Positions 304-15,000 of a stretch of 15,272 bases of DNA are shown here, piece by piece. Below the pieces are notes generated by a model that saw only the letters and a program-made list of their open reading frames with translations, made no database searches and was not told the DNA's origin. Numbering within the stretch: position 1 is the stretch's first letter; every line of letters begins with the position of its first letter. Source of the stretch: a virus; the UHGV virus genome UHGV-0202386. One strand, written 5' to 3'. The translations under genes and the position numbers were made by a program.

Positions 304-1533
304 GTGAGCAGAGCGCTTAACAAACTGAGCGATACATTGTTAAGAAAACTTTATGGTAAGCCAGCGGAGAAAAATACGTTCTATAGCGATGGCGGTAATC
401 TGAGCGTGAAATATTTAACATCAGGTAAATTGACCTGGTACTTCACCTACAGGGCTGGAACGGGAAGGGATACCACACCGGAACGCCTGAAGCTGGGAAA
501 CTATCCCGATCTGAGCCTTAAAGCAGCCAGGGAAAAAGCCGCAAAGTGTCGTGCATGGCTGGCAGAAGGGAAAAACCCACGTCATGAACTGAACTACACT
601 GTGCAGGAAGCGTTAAAACCCGTAACGGTTGGCGATGCGATCAGTTACTGGCTGGAAACGCACGTAAAGGAAAACCGTGTCGATTATGTATGCCTGAAAA
701 GTCGCCTGAATAATCACGTCATACAGCACATCGGTAACATGCCACTGGATAAATGCGAATTACGTCACTGGCTGGCCTGTTTTGACCGGATACGCAAAAA
801 ATCCCCCGTAACGTCTGGTCACATGATGCAGGCGTGTAAACAGGCGCTTAAGTTCTGCCGTAAACGTCGCTACGCAGTCAGTAACGTTCTGGATGATCTC
901 AACGTGGTGGACGTTGGCAAAAAGCCGGGCATAAGCGAACGCGTGCTTAGTAACAAAGAACTGGGCGAATTATTACAGGCGCTGGATAAAAAAATATTCC
1001 CGCCCTACTACAGCGCACTAATCCGCCTCCTGATTGTGTTTGGTTGCCGAACCGGAGAACTGAGGCTGTCGGAGATCAGGGAGTGGGATTTTAAGGAAAT
1101 GCTCTGGACAGTACCGAAGGAGCACAGCAAAACGAAGGTCGCCATATTCAGGCCAATACCGGAAAGCATTTTACCGTTTGTCACACGGCTGGTGGAGCAG
1201 AACCGACACACAGGGCTATTACTCGGGGAACTGAAACAGGAAGCCAGCGTGTCGCAATACGGCAGATTCACGCACAAAAAATTAAACCATCCGCACTGGT
1301 CACTACACGATATACGGCGCACGTTTACCACGATGCTGAATGATTTAGGCGTGGATCCGCATATTGTCGAACAACTCACCGCTCACCAGATGCCAGGGAT
1401 GCAGCGAGTCTATAACCACTCCCGTTATCTCGATGCGAAACGTAATGCGCTGGACATGTGGACAGAGCGGTTAGAGATACTGGCGGGTACTCACGAAAAC
1501 GTAACCACACTGCCAATAGCCAGAGAAATATAA
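304..1533 (+). CDS. int: Tyrosine recombinase / phage integrase (P4-type, with N-terminal arm-binding DUF4102-like region); GTG start
   Basis: 409-aa ORF. N-terminal pattern YSDGGNLSV..LTSGKLTWYFTYR...LKLGNYPDLSLKAAREKAAKCRAWLAEGKNP is typical of P4-family integrase arm domains. C-terminal catalytic signatures GCRTGELR, HWSLHDIRRTF, VYNHSRYLD. RBS-like GGGGGAG upstream of GTG 304. Sits next to attL. Confidence 0.9.
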   Translation: MSRALNKLSDTLLRKLYGKPAEKNTFYSDGGNLSVKYLTSGKLTWYFTYRAGTGRDTTPERLKLGNYPDLSLKAAREKAAKCRAWLAEGKNPRHELNYTVQEALKPVTVGDAISYWLETHVKENRVDYVCLKSRLNNHVIQHIGNMPLDKCELRHWLACFDRIRKKSPVTSGHMMQACKQALKFCRKRRYAVSNVLDDLNVVDVGKKPGISERVLSNKELGELLQALDKKIFPPYYSALIRLLIVFGCRTGELRLSEIREWDFKEMLWTVPKEHSKTKVAIFRPIPESILPFVTRLVEQNRHTGLLLGELKQEASVSQYGRFTHKKLNHPHWSLHDIRRTFTTMLNDLGVDPHIVEQLTAHQMPGMQRVYNHSRYLDAKRNALDMWTERLEILAGTHENVTTLPIAREI

Positions 1534-1871: not shown

Positions 1872-2075
1872 ATGACGGAGGCAATAGTGTTAAGCGCTGA
1901 TCGCTTTATACGTGAAAAAGAATGTCAGCAACTTACAGGCCTGAGCCGCTCATGTCGGTATCGCCTGGAGAAGACTGGACAATTCCCATCACGGCGTAAA
2001 CTCGGCGGTCGTTCCGTTGGCTGGTCTTTATCCGAAGTTCTGGCATGGAAGGACAGCCGCGAGGCAGTTCACTAA
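1872..2075 (+). CDS. alpA: AlpA-family phage transcriptional regulator / excisionase-like HTH protein
   Basis: Translation RFIREKECQQLTGLSRSCRYRLEKTGQFPSRRKLGGRSVGWSLSEVLAWK matches the AlpA/Phage_AlpA pattern (..GxSRSTIYRL...FP....LG.RSVGW..SEV..W). Alternative in-frame GTG start at 1887 is preceded by GGAGG at 1877-1881. Confidence 0.8.
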   Translation: MTEAIVLSADRFIREKECQQLTGLSRSCRYRLEKTGQFPSRRKLGGRSVGWSLSEVLAWKDSREAVH

Positions 2076-2100: not shown

Positions 2101-2216
2101 CCCATCCACTAACACAGAGATCTAACCATGAATACTGGATATACGCCCGAACAGGGGCGGGGCTTCGTTCGTCCTGGTGAAACTAAAAAGCCATGTTATC
2201 GGGTATTTTCAGGCAT

Positions 2217-2287
2217 AAAAAAAGCGGCCCCGATAAGGAACCGCCTTTCTGAACAATTAACCTGCTGCGAAAAAAATGGATCAGTGC
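2217..2287 (-). ncRNA. Candidate small RNA of about 70 nt: extended -10 promoter to intrinsic terminator, in an ORF-free gap
   Basis: Minus-strand TGaTATAAT (plus 2294-2302) gives a predicted start near 2285-2287. Terminator hairpin at 2224-2248 (AAGGCGG..CCGCUU, about 11 bp with wobbles, 5-nt loop) is followed by U7 (plus A-run 2217-2223). No ORF of 60 aa or more on either strand here except the rejected long + frame. Confidence 0.3.
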
Positions 2288-2293
2288 AGGGGA

Positions 2294-2302
2294 ATTATAT
2301 CA
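2294..2302 (-). promoter_or_regulatory. Extended -10 promoter element TGaTATAAT (minus strand), no convincing -35
   Basis: Reverse complement of plus 2294-2302 reads TGATATAAT. Read directly. Confidence 0.35.
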
Positions 2303-2340
2303 ACCGTGTGGTGAAGCGCCACTATTGCCGGATAACAGGC

Positions 2341-2369
2341 AAAACAAAGGCGACCGCAAAAGGGTCGCC
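2341..2369 (-). terminator. Intrinsic terminator of the leftward RHH operon
   Basis: Perfect 7-bp stem GGCGACC/GGTCGCC (2349-2355 / 2363-2369) with 7-nt loop. On the minus strand it is followed by TTTGTTTTG (plus 2341-2348). Lies 66 nt downstream of the stop of ORF 2436-2609. Confidence 0.55.
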
Positions 2370-2435
2370 AGTGGGAACAAGGGAAAACAAAAGCATCACC
2401 AACAATGCCACATTTGCGGCTGGTGGGCAATGTGA

Positions 2436-2609
2436 TCAGTCAGATTTGGTTCGTTCCAAGGTTTGCAACGAGAGTTTTTTCCTGCGCTCTTTAAGGAATT
2501 TCTCAAGAGCAAACGAACAAGGTGCGAATCTTTCTGATTCATGCTCTATCTTTCTGCGCCGTCTTTTCCGTGTCGGTGATAATGTTTTGGTCAATTCTTT
2601 ATCGGTCAT
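2436..2609 (-). CDS. Hypothetical small basic protein (57 aa), second gene of the leftward operon
   Basis: ORF MTDKELTKTLSPTRKRRRRKIEHESERF..., AGGG 8 nt upstream of ATG 2609. An alternative ATG at 2624 has no RBS. A perfect 7-bp hairpin (2631-2637 / 2651-2657) separates it from the upstream gene. Supported mainly by the downstream terminator; no recognisable family. Confidence 0.35.
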   Translation of the reverse strand: MTDKELTKTLSPTRKRRRRKIEHESERFAPCSFALEKFLKERRKKLSLQTLERTKSD

Positions 2610-2666
2610 TGTGTTGCCCTGCATAGCAATGCGCCGTAATACCTTACACCACGGCGCTGGTGATGG

Positions 2667-2846
2667 TTACTCCTGCTCTTTGGCCTTGCGGCGCTGGCGG
2701 CGTTTGATCTCGCCTTGCATTGACGCAATGATGAATTGTGATGTGCTTTCGCCTGATTCTTTCACTGATTCCATGGCGTTTACTATTTCGTGTGGTACAC
2801 GAGCCTTTAGAGCTTGTGATTTTGCGTTTGTTGTACCCGTTGCCAT
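2667..2846 (-). CDS. Small ribbon-helix-helix (Arc/CopG-like) DNA-binding protein, candidate repressor of the divergent early promoter
   Basis: 59-aa ORF MATGTTNAKSQALKARVPHEIVNAMESVKESGESTSQFIIASMQGEIKRRQRRKAKEQE. By eye: beta strand (KARVP), helix, helix, basic tail. RBS AGAGGA upstream of ATG 2846. Faces a promoter overlapped by direct repeats. Confidence 0.65.
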   Translation of the reverse strand: MATGTTNAKSQALKARVPHEIVNAMESVKESGESTSQFIIASMQGEIKRRQRRKAKEQE

Positions 2847-2907
2847 TTCTATTCCTCTGTTGGATTGGTGGGGGACAGTATACACAGAAAAAGCACAAAT
2901 AAAACCC

Positions 2908-2948
2908 TTGACGTGGGCCACACCTAAAGCATATAGTGGGCCACACCT
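2908..2948 (+). promoter_or_regulatory. Rightward early promoter (-35 TTGACG 2908-2913, 18-bp spacer, -10 TATAGT 2932-2937) overlapped by two 13-bp direct-repeat operators GTGGGCCACACCT
   Basis: Repeat copies at 2913-2925 and 2936-2948 (perfect 13/13, 23-bp spacing), one over the -35/spacer and one over the -10/start. Sits in the divergent region between the RHH gene and the rightward ORF cluster. Confidence 0.5.
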
Positions 2949-2974
2949 TGAGATTGTCAAGGTGCATAAATGCA

Positions 2975-3009
2975 AAGCCCCGCAAGTGTCGTTACCACTC
3001 GCAGGGCTT
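2975..3009. other. Strong stem-loop in the 5' leader of the rightward operon; on the minus strand it reads as hairpin plus UUUGCAUUUAU
   Basis: AAGCCCCGCAAGTG (2975-2988) pairs with CACTCGCAGGGCTT (2996-3009) at 12 of 14 positions, 7-nt loop. No T-run on plus; T-rich tail on minus (plus 2961-2974). Confidence 0.5.
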
Positions 3010-3045
3010 CTAACCACCAACGATAGAAAGTGTATCGAGGTAGCT

Positions 3046-3252
3046 ATGAGAAATTATACCAGACACCCGCAAGGGCGGGACTCGTACAACCTGAATAAAT
3101 ACATCTGGCGTTTTATCGCCCTGAGCACGGCACAACCGCGCGTGATTACCATTGAGGCCACCAGCGAACAGGAAGCGCGTCAGCAATCTCCTGATGGCTG
3201 CGTGATGGTATTCGCTGCCCGTATTCGTCAGGGGGTACGCCATGTGCAATAA
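3046..3252 (+). CDS. Hypothetical protein (68 aa), first gene of the rightward early operon
   Basis: ATG 3046 preceded by GAGGT (3037-3041). Translation MRNYTRHPQGRDSYNLNKYIWRFIALSTAQPRVITIEATSEQEARQQSPDGCVMVFAARIRQGV. A vague resemblance to small Icd/Ash-like satellite proteins is my impression only. Confidence 0.6.
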   Translation: MRNYTRHPQGRDSYNLNKYIWRFIALSTAQPRVITIEATSEQEARQQSPDGCVMVFAARIRQGVRHVQ

Positions 3253-3481
3253 CACCCGTCCGGACGCAGCCGCCGAAGCCATCAAAACGCTGATGCACGC
3301 GCTGATTGATATTTCTGTTATCGCAGACAAGGCGCATAAGCGCGCCACCAGCGAAACAGAATATGCCGGGGCTTTCGTTCCTCACTCACTGGCTGTTATG
3401 CAACTTAGTGCGGATATGGCGCTGAATGAGGCTAAAGCCATCCTGATTGCTGATTGTGAAAATGGGGGGGGTTATGCGTGA
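3242..3481 (+). CDS. Hypothetical protein (79 aa)
   Basis: ATG 3242 overlaps the upstream stop; AGGGGG 9 nt upstream. No recognisable family. Confidence 0.55.
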   Translation: MCNNTRPDAAAEAIKTLMHALIDISVIADKAHKRATSETEYAGAFVPHSLAVMQLSADMALNEAKAILIADCENGGGYA

Positions 3482-3938: not shown

Positions 3939-4238
3939 ATGAAACTTAAATATTCTGGCTTAACTGCCAGTGGCAACACTCACCCTAAATTTACGCGCGG
4001 CGATATTTACCGCGACCAGTACGGCGGCACGGTAATGATTAAGGGCGTGGAAGAACGGCGCGTAACCTACCGCCGTGAAGGTTACGAATATGATTGCGTG
4101 ATGCCTGTTTATCAGTTCCGGCGTGATTTTTCTCTGGTACAGACCGCGCCGCATAACGTGTCCACCAGCAACGCCAGGGCACGGGCAAACATCCAGAAGC
4201 TGAAAACCATGATTAACGGATTCAGGGGTAAAAAATGA
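3939..4238 (+). CDS. Hypothetical protein (99 aa), possibly DUF4222-like
   Basis: Motif YRDQYGGTVMIKGVEERRVTYRREGYEYDCVMPVYQFRRDF reminds me of DUF4222 proteins of enterobacterial prophages (memory only). Stop overlaps the primase start. Confidence 0.5.
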   Translation: MKLKYSGLTASGNTHPKFTRGDIYRDQYGGTVMIKGVEERRVTYRREGYEYDCVMPVYQFRRDFSLVQTAPHNVSTSNARARANIQKLKTMINGFRGKK

Positions 4239-6049
4239 AACTGGCACCGAACGTAAAACAGCAGTCACGCGGCATAAAACACAAAGAAACAGAAGTCATT
4301 ATTTTTGCGGGTAGTGATGCCTGGTCACACGCAAAACAATGGCAGGAACATGACGCGCGTATGGCCGGAGATAATGAGCCTCCTGTGTGGCTTGGGGAGC
4401 AGCAGTTATCCGAACTGGATAAGCTGCAAATTGTGCCGGAAGGCAGAAAATCCGTGCGCATATTCAGGGCCGGATATCTTGCGCCAGTAATGATAAAGGC
4501 GATTGGTCAGAAGCTGGCGGCGGCAGGCGTACAGGATGCAAATTTTTATCCTGAGGGTATGCACGGTCAGGAGGTGCAGAACTGGCGCGAATATCTGGCC
4601 CGTGAGCGCCAGAATCTTTCTGATGGTCTGGTGATTCAGCTTCCTGTTAAGAAAAAAACAGAAGACAGCGCCGCACCACTGGCGCTTAACCAGATGGGAG
4701 CAAGCCAGCGCGGCGAAGTTCTCCTGGCACATTATGGCGGTGAACTGGCGATTCATGCCGACTCTGACACTGTTCACCATTACAACGGCGTTGTATGGGA
4801 GCCGATTCAGGATAAAGAGTTACAGCGTGCTATGGCGCAGATTTTCATTGATGCGGAGATCAGCTATTCGCAGAACGCCATTAAATCGGCGGTCGATACC
4901 ATGAAGTTAAGTTTGCCTGTAATGGGGAATACAGCCCGTAACCTGATTGGATTCAGTAACGGGGTATTTGATACCAGAACAGGTAATTTTCGGGAGCATA
5001 ACAAAAACGACTGGTTGTTAATTGCCAGTGAATTACCTTTCAGCCCACCAGCAGAGGGGGAAACGCTGGCAACACATGCGCCGAATTTCTGGAAGTGGTT
5101 ACGCTGCTCGGTGGCAGAGAATGACCGCAAGACGGATCGCGTGCTGGCTGCATTATTCATGGTGCTGGCGAACCGGTACGACTGGCAGTTATTCATTGAG
5201 GTAACAGGTCCAGGGGGAAGTGGTAAAAGCGTGATGGCGGAGATTTGCACTATGCTGGCGGGTAAGGCCAACACAGTATCGGCAAGCATGAAGGCGCTGG
5301 AAGATGCAAGGGAACGCGCGTTAGTGGTTGGCTTTTCGCTGATTATCATGCCGGATATGACCCGCTACGCTGGTGATGGCGCAGGAATTAAGGCCATTAC
5401 AGGCGGTGACAAGGTGGCAATCGACCCGAAGCATAAAGCCCCCTACTCAACACGCATTCAGGCGGTCGTGCTGGCGGTGAACAATAACGCCATGTCATTC
5501 AGTGACCGCAGCGGGGGGATCTCACGTCGTCGGGTGATATTCAATTTTTCGGAGGTTGTACCGGAGAACGAGCGCGACCCCATGCTGGCAGAAAAAATAG
5601 AAGGAGAGCTGGCGGTTGTGATTCGCCATCTGCTTACTCGTTTTTCTGACCAGGACGAAGCTAAACGCCTGCTGTATGAGCAGCAGAAATCAGAAGAAGC
5701 TCTGGTGATAAAACGCGAGGGCGATTCGCTGGTGGACTTCTGTGGCTATCTCATGTCGTCGGTAATGTGTGATGGTCTGTTAGTGGGTAATGCCGAAATT
5801 ATTCCGTTCAGTCCGCGCAGGTATCTTTATCACGCCTATCTGGCATATATGAGGGCACACGGATTCGGTAAACCTGTAACACTGACGCGCTTCGGTAAAG
5901 ATATGCCGGGGGCAATGGCGGAATATGGCAGGGAGTATATAAAACGGAAAACGAAGCACGGTTTGCGTTCAAATGTGACACTGACAGAGGATTCAGAAGA
6001 CTGGATGCCATCATGTGCATCGGTCACAAATGACGACAGCAAAAATTAA
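4235..6049 (+). CDS. Replication initiator: P4-alpha-like primase / SF3 helicase (Walker A GPGGSGKS)
   Basis: 604-aa ORF. Walker A in VTGPGGSGKSVMAE, Walker B-like LIIMPDM, sensor AVVLAVNNN. Followed directly by TGTTCACC iterons, as for P4 alpha and its ori. Confidence 0.8.
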   Translation: MKLAPNVKQQSRGIKHKETEVIIFAGSDAWSHAKQWQEHDARMAGDNEPPVWLGEQQLSELDKLQIVPEGRKSVRIFRAGYLAPVMIKAIGQKLAAAGVQDANFYPEGMHGQEVQNWREYLARERQNLSDGLVIQLPVKKKTEDSAAPLALNQMGASQRGEVLLAHYGGELAIHADSDTVHHYNGVVWEPIQDKELQRAMAQIFIDAEISYSQNAIKSAVDTMKLSLPVMGNTARNLIGFSNGVFDTRTGNFREHNKNDWLLIASELPFSPPAEGETLATHAPNFWKWLRCSVAENDRKTDRVLAALFMVLANRYDWQLFIEVTGPGGSGKSVMAEICTMLAGKANTVSASMKALEDARERALVVGFSLIIMPDMTRYAGDGAGIKAITGGDKVAIDPKHKAPYSTRIQAVVLAVNNNAMSFSDRSGGISRRRVIFNFSEVVPENERDPMLAEKIEGELAVVIRHLLTRFSDQDEAKRLLYEQQKSEEALVIKREGDSLVDFCGYLMSSVMCDGLLVGNAEIIPFSPRRYLYHAYLAYMRAHGFGKPVTLTRFGKDMPGAMAEYGREYIKRKTKHGLRSNVTLTEDSEDWMPSCASVTNDDSKN

Positions 6050-7040: not shown

Positions 7041-7571
7041 ATGACAACGCTGACCATTAACCGGAAGCCGAAAGGCATTTACGGCACGCCGCAGAAAACG
7101 ACGCAGGCGGCGCAAGAGCAGGATAAAACCACATCGGTGCATAAAGTGATACCCGGCAATCAGAACGCACAGCAGAAGCCCACAGGGGCGACACCGTGGC
7201 AGCATATGACCAAAAGGCAGCGCAAAAACCGCCGACGCGTTAACCGCCTCACTGAGATGTGGCCTGACTTATTCAGCCATAAAGCACCGAAGCCGCTTAA
7301 GGTGGGGATATTCGACGACCTGATGCAGGATATCGCCGTCAGGGGGCTGGCATTCGGGTCGGGGGTATTACGTGCGACGCTGGCATCCTATGCGCAGTCT
7401 CCGCGCTATTACCGCGCCCTGATAGCTGGTGGCGCACGTTACGACCTGAAGGGCCAGCCATGTGGGGAAGTGACACCACAGGAACAGCAGGAGGCAGAAA
7501 CACGGCTGATGGTGCTGAATGAGAAGCACAAGCGCCAGCGCCGGGCAGCAAAGGGGGATACATGCCAGTGA
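7041..7571 (+). CDS. ProQ/FinO-domain RNA-binding protein (FinO-like RNA chaperone)
   Basis: PKPLKVGIFDDLMQDIAVRG...LRATLASYAQSPRYYRALIAGGARYDLKGQPCGEVTPQEQQEA aligns by eye to the ProQ/FinO core (PLKIGIFQDL...[35 protein letters not shown]). Lys/Gln-rich N-terminal extension. RBS AGGGGAAGG. Confidence 0.8.
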   Translation: MTTLTINRKPKGIYGTPQKTTQAAQEQDKTTSVHKVIPGNQNAQQKPTGATPWQHMTKRQRKNRRRVNRLTEMWPDLFSHKAPKPLKVGIFDDLMQDIAVRGLAFGSGVLRATLASYAQSPRYYRALIAGGARYDLKGQPCGEVTPQEQQEAETRLMVLNEKHKRQRRAAKGDTCQ

Positions 7572-7890: not shown

Positions 7891-7980
7891 GTGATTCTGG
7901 TTGATGTTTACATACTGATTTTTATGTATATGTTGGCGTGTGGCACTCAGACGTGAGCCGCCACAATGCCGCCTGATCCC

Positions 7981-9278: not shown

Positions 9279-9839
9279 ATGAAAAACACCGATTTTGAAA
9301 TCCGTACATCTGAACTGACCGCCAGCGATAAAAAACTGGTGGGTTATGCCGTTCGCTGGAACAGCCTTTCAGAAATTATCTGGGACGAGTTTCGCGAACA
9401 GTTCACGCCGGGGGCTTTTGCTGACTATCTGGCGGCGGGTAATGATGTGCGCTGTCTGTATGAGCATGACTATACCCAACTGCTGGGGCGTACCAAATCC
9501 GGCTCACTGGTACTGACTGAGGATAACACCGGGCTACGTTTTGAACTGACACCGCCAAATACCCAGCTTGGAAAAGATGTGCTTACGCTGGTGGAACGTG
9601 GCGATATTACAGGAATGAGCTTTGGCTTTCGCGCATTATGCGAGGAGTGGAATATCGCGCAAAAACCGTATCTGCGTACTGTAACCGCCGCAGAACTCCG
9701 TGAAATCACGATAACATCGATGCCTGCTTATCCCGAATCCGGCGTGGAGATTGCCCACCGTTCGTTGTTTGCACAGTACCCTGAATTACGCCCGGCAGGA
9801 AATAATCGTCATCGCTGGGCTGAACTGGCGGGGTTGTGA
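9279..9839 (+). CDS. HK97-family prohead (maturation) protease
   Basis: MKNTDFEIR...LVGYAVRWN...FTPGAFADYL...VRCLYEHD..QLLGRTKSGSLVLTEDNTGLRFE...GKDVLTLVERGDITGMSFGF matches the Peptidase_S78/U35 prohead-protease pattern. GGAG RBS at 9268-9271. Confidence 0.85.
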   Translation: MKNTDFEIRTSELTASDKKLVGYAVRWNSLSEIIWDEFREQFTPGAFADYLAAGNDVRCLYEHDYTQLLGRTKSGSLVLTEDNTGLRFELTPPNTQLGKDVLTLVERGDITGMSFGFRALCEEWNIAQKPYLRTVTAAELREITITSMPAYPESGVEIAHRSLFAQYPELRPAGNNRHRWAELAGL

Positions 9840-9840
9840 T

Positions 9841-11055
9841 ATGTGGTGGCCTTTTAGTCGTAAAAAAAGCGATCTGCGTAACCTGTCCATTGATGATTTT
9901 CTGGCGTTGTCTGGTGTACCAAATACCGGATCCGGAGAATATGTTTCTGCCGGGACGGCTGAATCATTGCCTGCTGTGATGAACGCGGTTTCTGTCATCG
10001 CTGAGGCGGTGGCCACGATGCCGTGTTACCTGTATCTGGTACGCAATGATAAGGGCAGAGAGGCGCGGGAATGGCTGGACAGTCACCCGGTAGATATTCT
10101 GCTGAATGAGCAGCCTAATTCGTGCCTGACACCTTACCAGTTTAAACGCACAATGATGCGTCACTGCCTGCTGAACGGTAACGCCTATGCGGTTATTGAG
10201 TGGGGGCGGGACGGGCAGCCAAAATCACTTCATCCTTATGCGCCGGGGTGTGTTGTACCGGAACGCACAGGCACACACAAATACCGCTATACCATCACCG
10301 AACCCTGTACAGGAACGGTGCGCACGTATTTACAGGAAGAAGTTCTGCATCTCCGCTATGCCTCGGATGATGGCTTTCTGGGGCGTTCCCCCGTCACGAT
10401 TTGCCGTGAGGCGCTGGGGCTTGGCCTTGCTCAACAGCGCCACGGAGCCAGCATTATGAAAGATGGCATGATGGCGGCAGGGATTATCACGTCAGGTGAA
10501 TGGCTGGACGGCGTGAAAGGTAAACAGGCATTAGACGCACTGGAACGCTACAAGGGGGCGAAAAATGCCGGAAAAACGCCAATCCTTGAAGGGGGCATGG
10601 ATTACAGGCAGCTGGGGATGAGTAACCAGGATGCGGAATGGCTGGCCTCCCGTCGCTTCTCCATTGAAGACATCGCCAGGATGTTCAACGTGTCGCCGAT
10701 TTTTCTTCAGGAATACAGCAACAGCACCTACAGCAATTTCAGTGAGGCGAGCCGCGCATTTCTGACCATGACAATGCGCCCGTGGCTGGCGAACTTCGAA
10801 CAGCAAATCAAGGCCGCTTTGCTGGTGACTTCTCCCGTACCTGGTACCCGTTATCTGGTTGAGTTTGATTCAGCCGATTTACTGCGCGCCACACCCACCG
10901 AACGTTATGCCACGTATGAGAAAGGGATTAAGAGCGGGATCATGAATCCGAACGAAGCTCGCGAACGCGAGGGTATGCCGCCGCGTGAAGGTGGTGATGA
11001 GTTCAGCCAGGCATGGAAACAGACTGTGGAAATTAAAGGGAGAAAAGATGAGTGA
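9841..11055 (+). CDS. HK97-family portal protein
   Basis: 404 aa from ATG 9841, 1 nt after the protease stop. Long conserved portal-like core (NAYAVIEWGRDGQP..., SIMKDGMMAAGIITSGEWLDG..., FLTMTMRPWLANFEQQIKAALL). Position and size fit a portal. Confidence 0.8.
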   Translation: MWWPFSRKKSDLRNLSIDDFLALSGVPNTGSGEYVSAGTAESLPAVMNAVSVIAEAVATMPCYLYLVRNDKGREAREWLDSHPVDILLNEQPNSCLTPYQFKRTMMRHCLLNGNAYAVIEWGRDGQPKSLHPYAPGCVVPERTGTHKYRYTITEPCTGTVRTYLQEEVLHLRYASDDGFLGRSPVTICREALGLGLAQQRHGASIMKDGMMAAGIITSGEWLDGVKGKQALDALERYKGAKNAGKTPILEGGMDYRQLGMSNQDAEWLASRRFSIEDIARMFNVSPIFLQEYSNSTYSNFSEASRAFLTMTMRPWLANFEQQIKAALLVTSPVPGTRYLVEFDSADLLRATPTERYATYEKGIKSGIMNPNEAREREGMPPREGGDEFSQAWKQTVEIKGRKDE

Positions 11056-14799: not shown

Positions 14800-15000
14800 G
14801 AAAAATTGCATTCAGGAGGTGGGATCGAAATCCCTACAACCCATTGCTTATGGGACTGCCCGCCCCGTCAAATTTTTACACCCGCGAAAAATACTTCAAG
14901 CTGGTGGGCATGATGCCGATATGGGGATCCCCATGTCGACATTAACGCCCCTCATGAATTGGCGTGCTTCCCCCTGGAAAGATGACCCGCCTGTATATTT

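Follow-up and report, generated by a model that had tools for sequence, protein, structure and literature searches.

A conserved hairpin in the early-operon leader of a phage satellite as the probable terminator of a RepX-like cis-antisense RNA

The 15,272-nt virus genome UHGV-0202386, referred to here as the window, carries a strong hairpin between the promoter of its early operon and the first gene of that operon, and the locus raises the question of which strand this structure serves and what it does there. The window is a complete capsid-forming PICI-like phage satellite whose genes and control elements are collected in Table 1. The first early gene, icd, encodes an Icd-like protein, and the genes downstream of it overlap by 4–11 nt in a chain that ends at the primase.

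Table 1. Features of the island and of its early control region, with positions in the window.
Feature	Position	Strand	Evidence or remark
Integrase	304–1533		
AlpA	1872–2075		
Divergent YlcI/YnfO-family protein (ylcI), 59 aa	2667–2846	-	NF041551, 8e-19; start ATG 2846
Early promoter TTGACG-18-TATAGT	2908–2937	+	Promoter-like site; predicted start ~2945, transcript is the predicted antisense target
Operator-like direct repeats GTGGGCCACACCT	2913–2925 and 2936–2948	.	Two 13-nt copies flanking/over the early promoter
U-rich 3′ tail GCAUUUAUGC, predicted 3′ end region	2964–2973	-	With the last U residues of the stem, UUUGCAUUUAU
Stem-loop II (SLII)	2974–3010	-	15 bp (3 G.U), 7-nt loop; folding, conservation, covariation, strand asymmetry
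Stem-loop I (SLI)	3011–3046	-	Fold of the 84-nt RNA; pairing 95.7% across relatives
Shine-Dalgarno GAGG (3037–3040) and start codon ATG (3046–3048) of the Icd-like gene	3037–3048	+	Segment that the RNA would sequester
Icd-like first early gene (icd)	3046–3252	+	NCBIfam phage_ICD_like NF033153, 1e-19 for 3046–3249
Extended -10 TGGTATAAT, predicted antisense promoter	3053–3061	-	Read from sequence; conserved hexamer in relatives
DUF4222 gene			Part of the island
D5-type primase/helicase	4235–6049		
SSB gene			Part of the island
FinO/ProQ-domain protein	7041–7571	+	PF04352 4.8e-24; ProQ NTD 7.9e-12, FinO 7e-11
Capsid, protease, portal, connector, HNH and terminase genes			As found in L001, a close E. 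coli relative whose insertion site is tqsA

Folding of 2965–3020 on the plus strand gave 12 pairs with two mismatches (C.A and A.C) for the segment 2975–3009, at −16.3 kcal/mol (z −4.0; 0/200 shuffles as good), which bears out the inverted repeat with 12 of 14 positions paired that the initial annotation had described, together with its placement between the promoter-like site and the first ribosome-binding site. On the minus strand the stem is longer, with 15 uninterrupted pairs (3010–2996 with 2988–2974) closed by the loop 2995–2989; it is uninterrupted because the two plus-strand mismatches become G.U pairs, and the closing pair 3010/2974 is a third G.U that is extra on this strand. A 66-nt minus-strand stretch folded at −31.2 kcal/mol (z −5.3; 0/200 shuffles as good), and when a 45-nt segment was slid along both strands over all 15,272 bases the minus-strand hairpin, at −27.2 kcal/mol, was the single most stable local fold (all scanned segments: mean −7.8, sd 3.9). 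Other stable hairpins in the window were located directly past the alpA stop (2079–2103, terminator-like), between ylcI and the next minus-strand open reading frame (2613–2657, minus strand), upstream of the capsid gene (7929–7974) and near the right end of the island (14905–14951, a palindrome).

With 15 bp and a 7-nt loop, the minus-strand hairpin has the G+C-rich stem (≥5 bp) and short loop of a terminator. Past the stem, the plus strand reads CUAACCACCAACG and has no U tract, as had been annotated. The minus-strand tail, which the initial annotation gave as UUUGCAUUUAU, is correct in its letters, although its first three U residues form the last pairs of the stem and the free tail is only GCAUUUAUGC. 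The U tract in the window is interrupted and falls short of what a terminator scan demands; because of this interruption, the efficiency of termination is uncertain and some transcription may continue toward the operator and ylcI. Across 86 relatives, the 12 nt past the stem contain 47% U versus 33% overall, and some alleles possess a tail of the canonical type (UUUGCUUUUUU).

Relatives of the leader were collected from annotated E. coli variants, from loci in E. ruysiae, Shigella, Klebsiella and Tenebrionibacter and from a pattern scan of viral contigs, and comprised 82–86 distinct sequences; the DNA pattern scan, which used the conserved linker motif, added 120 loci and biased the set toward that motif, and a search of genome contigs with a single Icd-like protein yielded 5 loci. 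When the hairpins were folded one by one, the minimum free energy was lower on the minus strand than on the plus strand in all 52 real distinct hairpins (a 53rd, a false pattern match, was left out of this count), with means of −23.5 and −17.0 kcal/mol, respectively. When the minus strands were aligned plainly with MAFFT (A1), pairing in the structure was 96.5% versus 92.2% in shuffles (0/500) and 31–56% in slid controls; the 10 lowermost SLII pairs were 97.7% paired with 152 G.U cells, and single stem positions showed pair types such as AU/CG/GU/GC and UG/CG/GC/GU/UA/AU. RNAalifold recovered the lower stem alone from the MAFFT alignment, since a 1-nt bulge shifts the upper stem. The 86 sequences were realigned with a covariance model (R1), and in the resulting alignment (A2) the 1-nt bulge present in most alleles is resolved; A2 is fitted to the minus-strand model, and the per-sequence folding and the MAFFT alignment agree with it. 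The 27 pairs of A2 were 96.1% paired (slid controls, 32–55%), and double-sided changes affected 10 pairs versus 5.1 in shuffles (0/500), a significance that is overstated because the sequences are related.

The two strands differ clearly in this alignment. Compensatory changes were detected at 7 of the 14 SLII pairs (A2, 86 sequences), 96.5% of SLII cells were paired on the minus strand versus 83.1% on the plus strand, and 160 G.U cells distributed over six SLII positions pair on the minus strand only, whereas the number of cells that pair on the plus strand only is zero. The R1 model scored 82.8 bits on the minus strand of the leader versus 11.3 bits on the plus strand. The 52 individual folds, A1 and A2 together support a conserved, covarying structure of the antisense strand, and the A2 cell counts, taken with the weaker plus-strand fold in every allele, give no sign of selection for sense-strand pairing. 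Variation is concentrated in the loops (1.29 and 1.37 bits per column, versus 0.28–0.48 in the stems and 0.08 in the linker), and the 86 sequences contain 31 different SLI loops and 37 apical variants of SLII, in 76 combinations. On these comparisons, selection has maintained the hairpin as an RNA structure on the minus strand, which excludes a palindrome of duplex DNA and argues against a function primarily on the plus strand.

The same observations bear on three other explanations of the hairpin. A chance inverted repeat without function, in favour of which only the general frequency of short inverted repeats can be cited, is already refuted by the comparative data, the structure being the most stable fold of the window, better than any of 200 shuffles, and showing both conservation and covariation across 86 distinct sequences that span several genera. 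It is very improbable that the element acts at the level of DNA, either as a palindromic protein site or as a single-stranded hairpin for island replication or packaging: although the inverted repeat lies near the operator region, and IncQ plasmids use hairpin single-strand initiation sites, a duplex palindrome gives no reason for G.T-type imperfections to outnumber A.C-type ones by 160:0 on one strand, both apex and loop are hypervariable where a binding site would be conserved, and the hairpin keeps a fixed distance from the ribosome-binding site and the -10, not from a replication origin. We also consider it decidedly unlikely that the hairpin acts in the plus-strand early leader, in processing or stability, as a site for a protein (an anti-terminator or an AlpA-dependent factor) or as a translational regulator, with no antisense RNA being involved. 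Its location in the predicted 5′ UTR (+31 to +66), a plus-strand fold that is still stable at the energy and z-score given above, and the structured nature of the whole leader are what such a role has to recommend it; however, the six stem positions switch between Watson-Crick and G.U pairs only in ways that let the minus-strand pairing survive, the plus-strand stem is the weaker one in every real allele, and both the missing plus-strand U tract and the low plus-strand R1 score point the same way.

A candidate promoter for a minus-strand RNA is the extended -10, which has the consensus sequence and lies inside icd codons 3–6; on the minus strand it precedes the hairpin by ~45 nt, and it predicts an RNA start at ~3047–3045, opposite the icd ATG. 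A -10-like hexamer (TATGAT, TATAAT, TATTAT, TACGAT, TATGCT, TAGAAT or TACTAT), mostly preceded by TGn, was present 4 or 9–10 nt before the anti-ATG in 62 of 62 distinct relatives, and was kept despite unrelated Icd N-termini (MVAVNHIPH, MAGSQHTQ, MAGADSK, MANVNSNT). Codon 4, under the hexamer, varies (His/Tyr/Asn/Arg) while the equivalents of T-12, A-11 and T-7 stay; as the -10 overlaps coding sequence (N-H/Y-T), the constraints of protein and promoter are not fully separable at this site. The predicted antisense promoter has no recognisable -35, and the site was missed by a consensus promoter scan.

The predicted 84-nt RNA (3047 to 2964) folds into two stem-loops at −40.1 kcal/mol (z −6.2). 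The outer stem of SLI pairs 3046–3039 with 3018–3011, the latter segment holding the conserved UUGGUGGUUAG, and its inner stem pairs 3037–3033 with 3025–3021 around a variable loop (3032–3026); the inner stem covaries among relatives (CGAUA/UAUCG, CGUUA/UAACG and CGCUA/UAGCG, that is AU/UA/CG). SLI is complementary to the icd Shine-Dalgarno sequence and AUG. The fold is consistent with an RNA of ~75–85 nt, extending from ~3047 to ~2965, in which the two stem-loops would be joined by UUGGUGGUUAG. Our preferred reading, to which we assign a probability of roughly 0.7, is that the hairpin is the Rho-independent terminator (SLII) of a RepX/FinP-like cis-antisense RNA of this size, which acts as a translational repressor of the early/replication operon; the production of the RNA, its end point and its action are what we infer from the features described here. 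An RNA of this kind at this locus was not described in the accessible literature, and the RefSeq records of relatives have no RNA feature here. A cis-antisense RNA that covers a ribosome-binding site and ends in a terminator hairpin is of a classical kind, and it is the occurrence in a phage satellite that would be new.

Rfam gave no match anywhere in the window at the gathering threshold. At E≤10, a search of 2700–3300 returned only chance matches of the snoRNA/miRNA type and a weak isrJ match (14.1 bits), which was not credited. The best Rfam match, obtained in a 116-nt search, was RF00043 (R1162/RepX) with 24.6 bits (E 0.011), which is well below the gathering score of 55 bits; this match spans the full model (1–75) at 2975–3047 on the plus strand and ends at the icd ATG, and RF00043 was also the top match (19.9 bits) in the divergent E. 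ruysiae leader L002. In IncQ plasmids the Rfam consensus falls in the interval from gene F to repA and on the strand that is sense for repA, ending with the Shine-Dalgarno sequence and ATG GCT AC (L013, 401–475). The consensus therefore represents the target strand, and a match to the plus strand of the window would put the RNA on the minus strand, antisense to both the ribosome-binding site and the start codon of the first gene of the replication operon, with the model aligned end to end. The RNA ends implied by this match are the same as those predicted from the -10 and the hairpin. In the reciprocal direction, R1 matched the IncQ plasmid at L013 466–386, antisense to repA, with 22.1 bits (E 4.5e-4, from a rough calibration), and the 11-nt linker UUGGUGGUUAG is identical in RepX and the islands.

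RepX is an experimentally established 75-nt antisense RNA with two stem-loops that covers the ribosome-binding site and start codon of repA and holds down the copy number of the plasmid; its 3′ U tail is poor, and it is a FinO ligand (PMC8136791; PMC9977716). The predicted RNA of the island resembles it in being cis-antisense, in having its start at the initial codons of the gene that heads a replication operon, whose Shine-Dalgarno sequence and AUG it covers, and in having two stem-loops, of which the second, at the 3′ end, is long and G+C-rich and is followed by a poor U tail; the model scores are reciprocal, though both are below threshold. The context is not that of an IncQ replicon, where the target is the repA helicase gene on a plasmid, but a chromosomal cf-PICI-like phage satellite in which an Icd-like gene is the target. 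Further differences are that the stem sequences are unrelated, that the IncQ hairpin overlaps the end of the upstream gene F whereas the island hairpin overlaps no upstream coding gene, and that the island loops are hypervariable; moreover, the island RNA is predicted from sequence alone. The element is a distant relative or structural analogue of RepX, and by the score threshold it is not a member of RF00043.

Other regulatory RNAs show partial likeness. FinP of F-like plasmids (~79 nt) forms two stem-loops over the 5′ UTR and ribosome-binding site of the master regulator traJ, and its terminator hairpin and 3′ tail are bound by a FinO-domain protein, a protein type that the window also encodes; however, sequence similarity to FinP was not detectable, the FinO-domain gene is present in only ~16% of related islands, and binding is here a prediction. 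The c4 RNA of P1/P7 and the CI RNA of P4 are immunity RNAs, c4 blocking the icd ribosome-binding site; both are processed from the strand of their own target and act through short complementary boxes. They share with the island the context of a mobile element of enterobacteria and repression at the RNA level of an icd ribosome-binding site, with icd leading the operon and the genes behind it dependent on its translation, but the RNA predicted here would be a true cis-antisense transcript, and the C4 family gave no Rfam match on 2700–3300 or 2955–3070 even at E≤10. The sar RNA of P22, which lies between two cistrons and is antisense to the ant ribosome-binding site in immI, is likewise a short antisense RNA whose promoter faces a strong early promoter, which overlaps the ribosome-binding site of the downstream gene and which adjoins small ribbon-helix-helix repressors; it has no sequence relationship to the island RNA and a different gene context, and the islands use the first leader.

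The FinO/ProQ-domain gene of the window adjoins the SSB gene and precedes the capsid module, and its product, a possible chaperone for the antisense RNA, fits the likeness to RepX. Such a gene was present in 12 of 75 related islands and absent from 84% of them; it is an accessory gene and not a universal or required partner, and an obligatory partnership of the RNA with a FinO-domain protein was rejected on this count.

Upstream of the early promoter, the divergent YlcI/YnfO-family protein is likely to be a DNA-binding repressor of that promoter. The ylcI gene has its own -10 (TATACT, 2882–2877), which is conserved in YlcI-type loci, and these loci also possess an upstream T-rich tract and a third operator-like copy, 35–45 nt before the ATG; in loci with a repressor of the ribbon-helix-helix (RHH) type, a palindromic -10 of the ACTATAGT type adjoins the start. 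The divergent repressor is allelic, being of the YlcI/YnfO family or of one of several ribbon-helix-helix-like types (window, 2667–2948; L012, 4746–4990; other loci), and every type comes with a distinct operator-repeat pair that overlies the early promoter, with the antisense module downstream being kept. Judged by this sequence arrangement, the repressor, operator and antisense region is a mosaic ‘immunity’ region. A 62-aa open reading frame downstream of ylcI (2436–2624, minus strand), which corresponds to a hypothetical protein in L007 (4465–4665) and L008 (4456–4665), probably forms a two-gene repressor operon with it. Where the early transcript is predicted to begin, an inverted repeat (CACCTTGAGATTGTCAAGGTG, 2944–2964) overlaps the second operator copy and is kept in the form CACCTTG...CAAGGTG in several YlcI-type relatives; it could be a 5′-terminal stabilising stem-loop or part of the operator. 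The region is also crossed by a 374-codon open frame (2128–3252, plus strand) in phase with icd, which runs antisense to ylcI and through the promoter and the hairpin; L024 has a similar frame of 677 codons, and the long frames of RefSeq relatives are labelled ‘hypothetical’, ‘ash family’ or ‘Icd-like’ and in part as pseudogenes. The 374-codon frame is probably a shadow ORF.

The position of ylcI gives rise to one more alternative, in which the minus-strand transcript is a long 5′ leader of the ylcI mRNA, the hairpin is an attenuator or stabiliser within it, and regulation works mainly by convergent transcriptional interference. At every locus examined the repressor gene does follow downstream on that strand, the two promoters, which are ~100 bp apart, point toward each other as pL faces pR in coliphage 186, and the imperfect U tract makes some read-through plausible. 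We nevertheless regard this as unlikely, and give a low rank to an antisense promoter that serves the repressor gene, since the repressor is served by a conserved -10 of its own in YlcI-type loci, with the third operator-like copy, and by a -10 that adjoins the start in RHH-type loci. It also fits poorly with the exchange of the repressor between unrelated types while the RNA module stays, with the canonical terminator tail of some alleles, and with the resemblance of the module to RepX, which is a discrete 75-nt RNA.

If the hairpin is instead the terminator of a discrete antisense RNA, as we prefer, the following sequence of events can be proposed. Minus-strand transcription would begin at ~3047–3045, from the extended -10 inside the first icd codons, and end at ~2970–2964, just past the hairpin, giving an RNA fully complementary to the 5′ leader, Shine-Dalgarno sequence and AUG of the early operon. 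By analogy with RepX/repA and FinP/traJ, this RNA would be made constitutively and, after loop-loop contact, form a duplex with the early mRNA that blocks the icd ribosome-binding site and hence icd translation. Since the downstream genes overlap, the block would lower expression of the whole replication operon, and the island would be kept quiet or its copy number limited. The hairpin would end the RNA and so shield the operator region from antisense transcription, as the initial annotation suggested, and it would also provide a structured 3′ end of the type recognised by ProQ/FinO proteins; host ProQ, or the FinO-domain protein of the island, may bind it. Upon induction of the early promoter, convergent transcription would in turn silence the antisense promoter, and the hypervariable loops would make the control specific to each island.

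Compared with the initial annotation, the picture has thus shifted in several respects. The terminator that it proposed on the minus strand is supported and extended, whereas the transcription that it stops is most likely not stray antisense transcription but a discrete RNA from the conserved extended -10. The suggestion of a leader structure, an anti-termination site or a processing site on the plus strand found no specific support, the relatives keeping the pairing only on the minus strand. The operon was rightly called early, being an early/replication operon, but it belongs to a phage satellite and not to a phage.

The leader is widely distributed. A 701-nt region around the hairpin matched 1539 of 5426 complete E. 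coli genomes and the 136-nt leader alone matched 1408 of 5426, at up to 6 places per genome, counts that place the leader module in roughly one complete E. coli genome in four; related loci were also found in Klebsiella, Shigella, E. ruysiae and Tenebrionibacter. A blastn search of a phage collection gave no match, and the element is therefore not shared with the deposited phages, P4 included. A plasmid collection yielded a few island-bearing E. coli records, together with two matches to Arsenophonus plasmids that were only partial, and no other plasmid matched. The viral contig L024 has two tandem leader/antisense modules (9682–9770 and 10474–10556), ~800 nt apart, each preceding an Icd-like start; the SLI sequences and SLII loops of the two copies differ.

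In papers on Gram-negative PICIs, only the activator AlpA has been described and the existence of a repressor has been called unclear (PMC6092414). If our reading is true, a conserved antisense RNA placed where the replication operon begins, together with a small divergent repressor and its operator repeats, would be a missing layer in the control of satellite induction and copy number, and the regulation of satellites would be linked to the antisense control of IncQ and IncF plasmids and to FinO/ProQ chaperones. The leader module belongs to no Rfam family, and R1 is a covariance model ready for use in annotation. More tentatively, and as a possibility we would not yet favour, Gram-negative PICIs and related satellites may be kept quiescent or limited in copy number through a family of RepX-like antisense RNAs, in which the hypervariable loops would act as an RNA ‘immunity/incompatibility’ code that allows several islands (up to the 6 places per E. 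coli genome) to coexist without cross-talk, some islands having a dedicated FinO-domain chaperone of their own.
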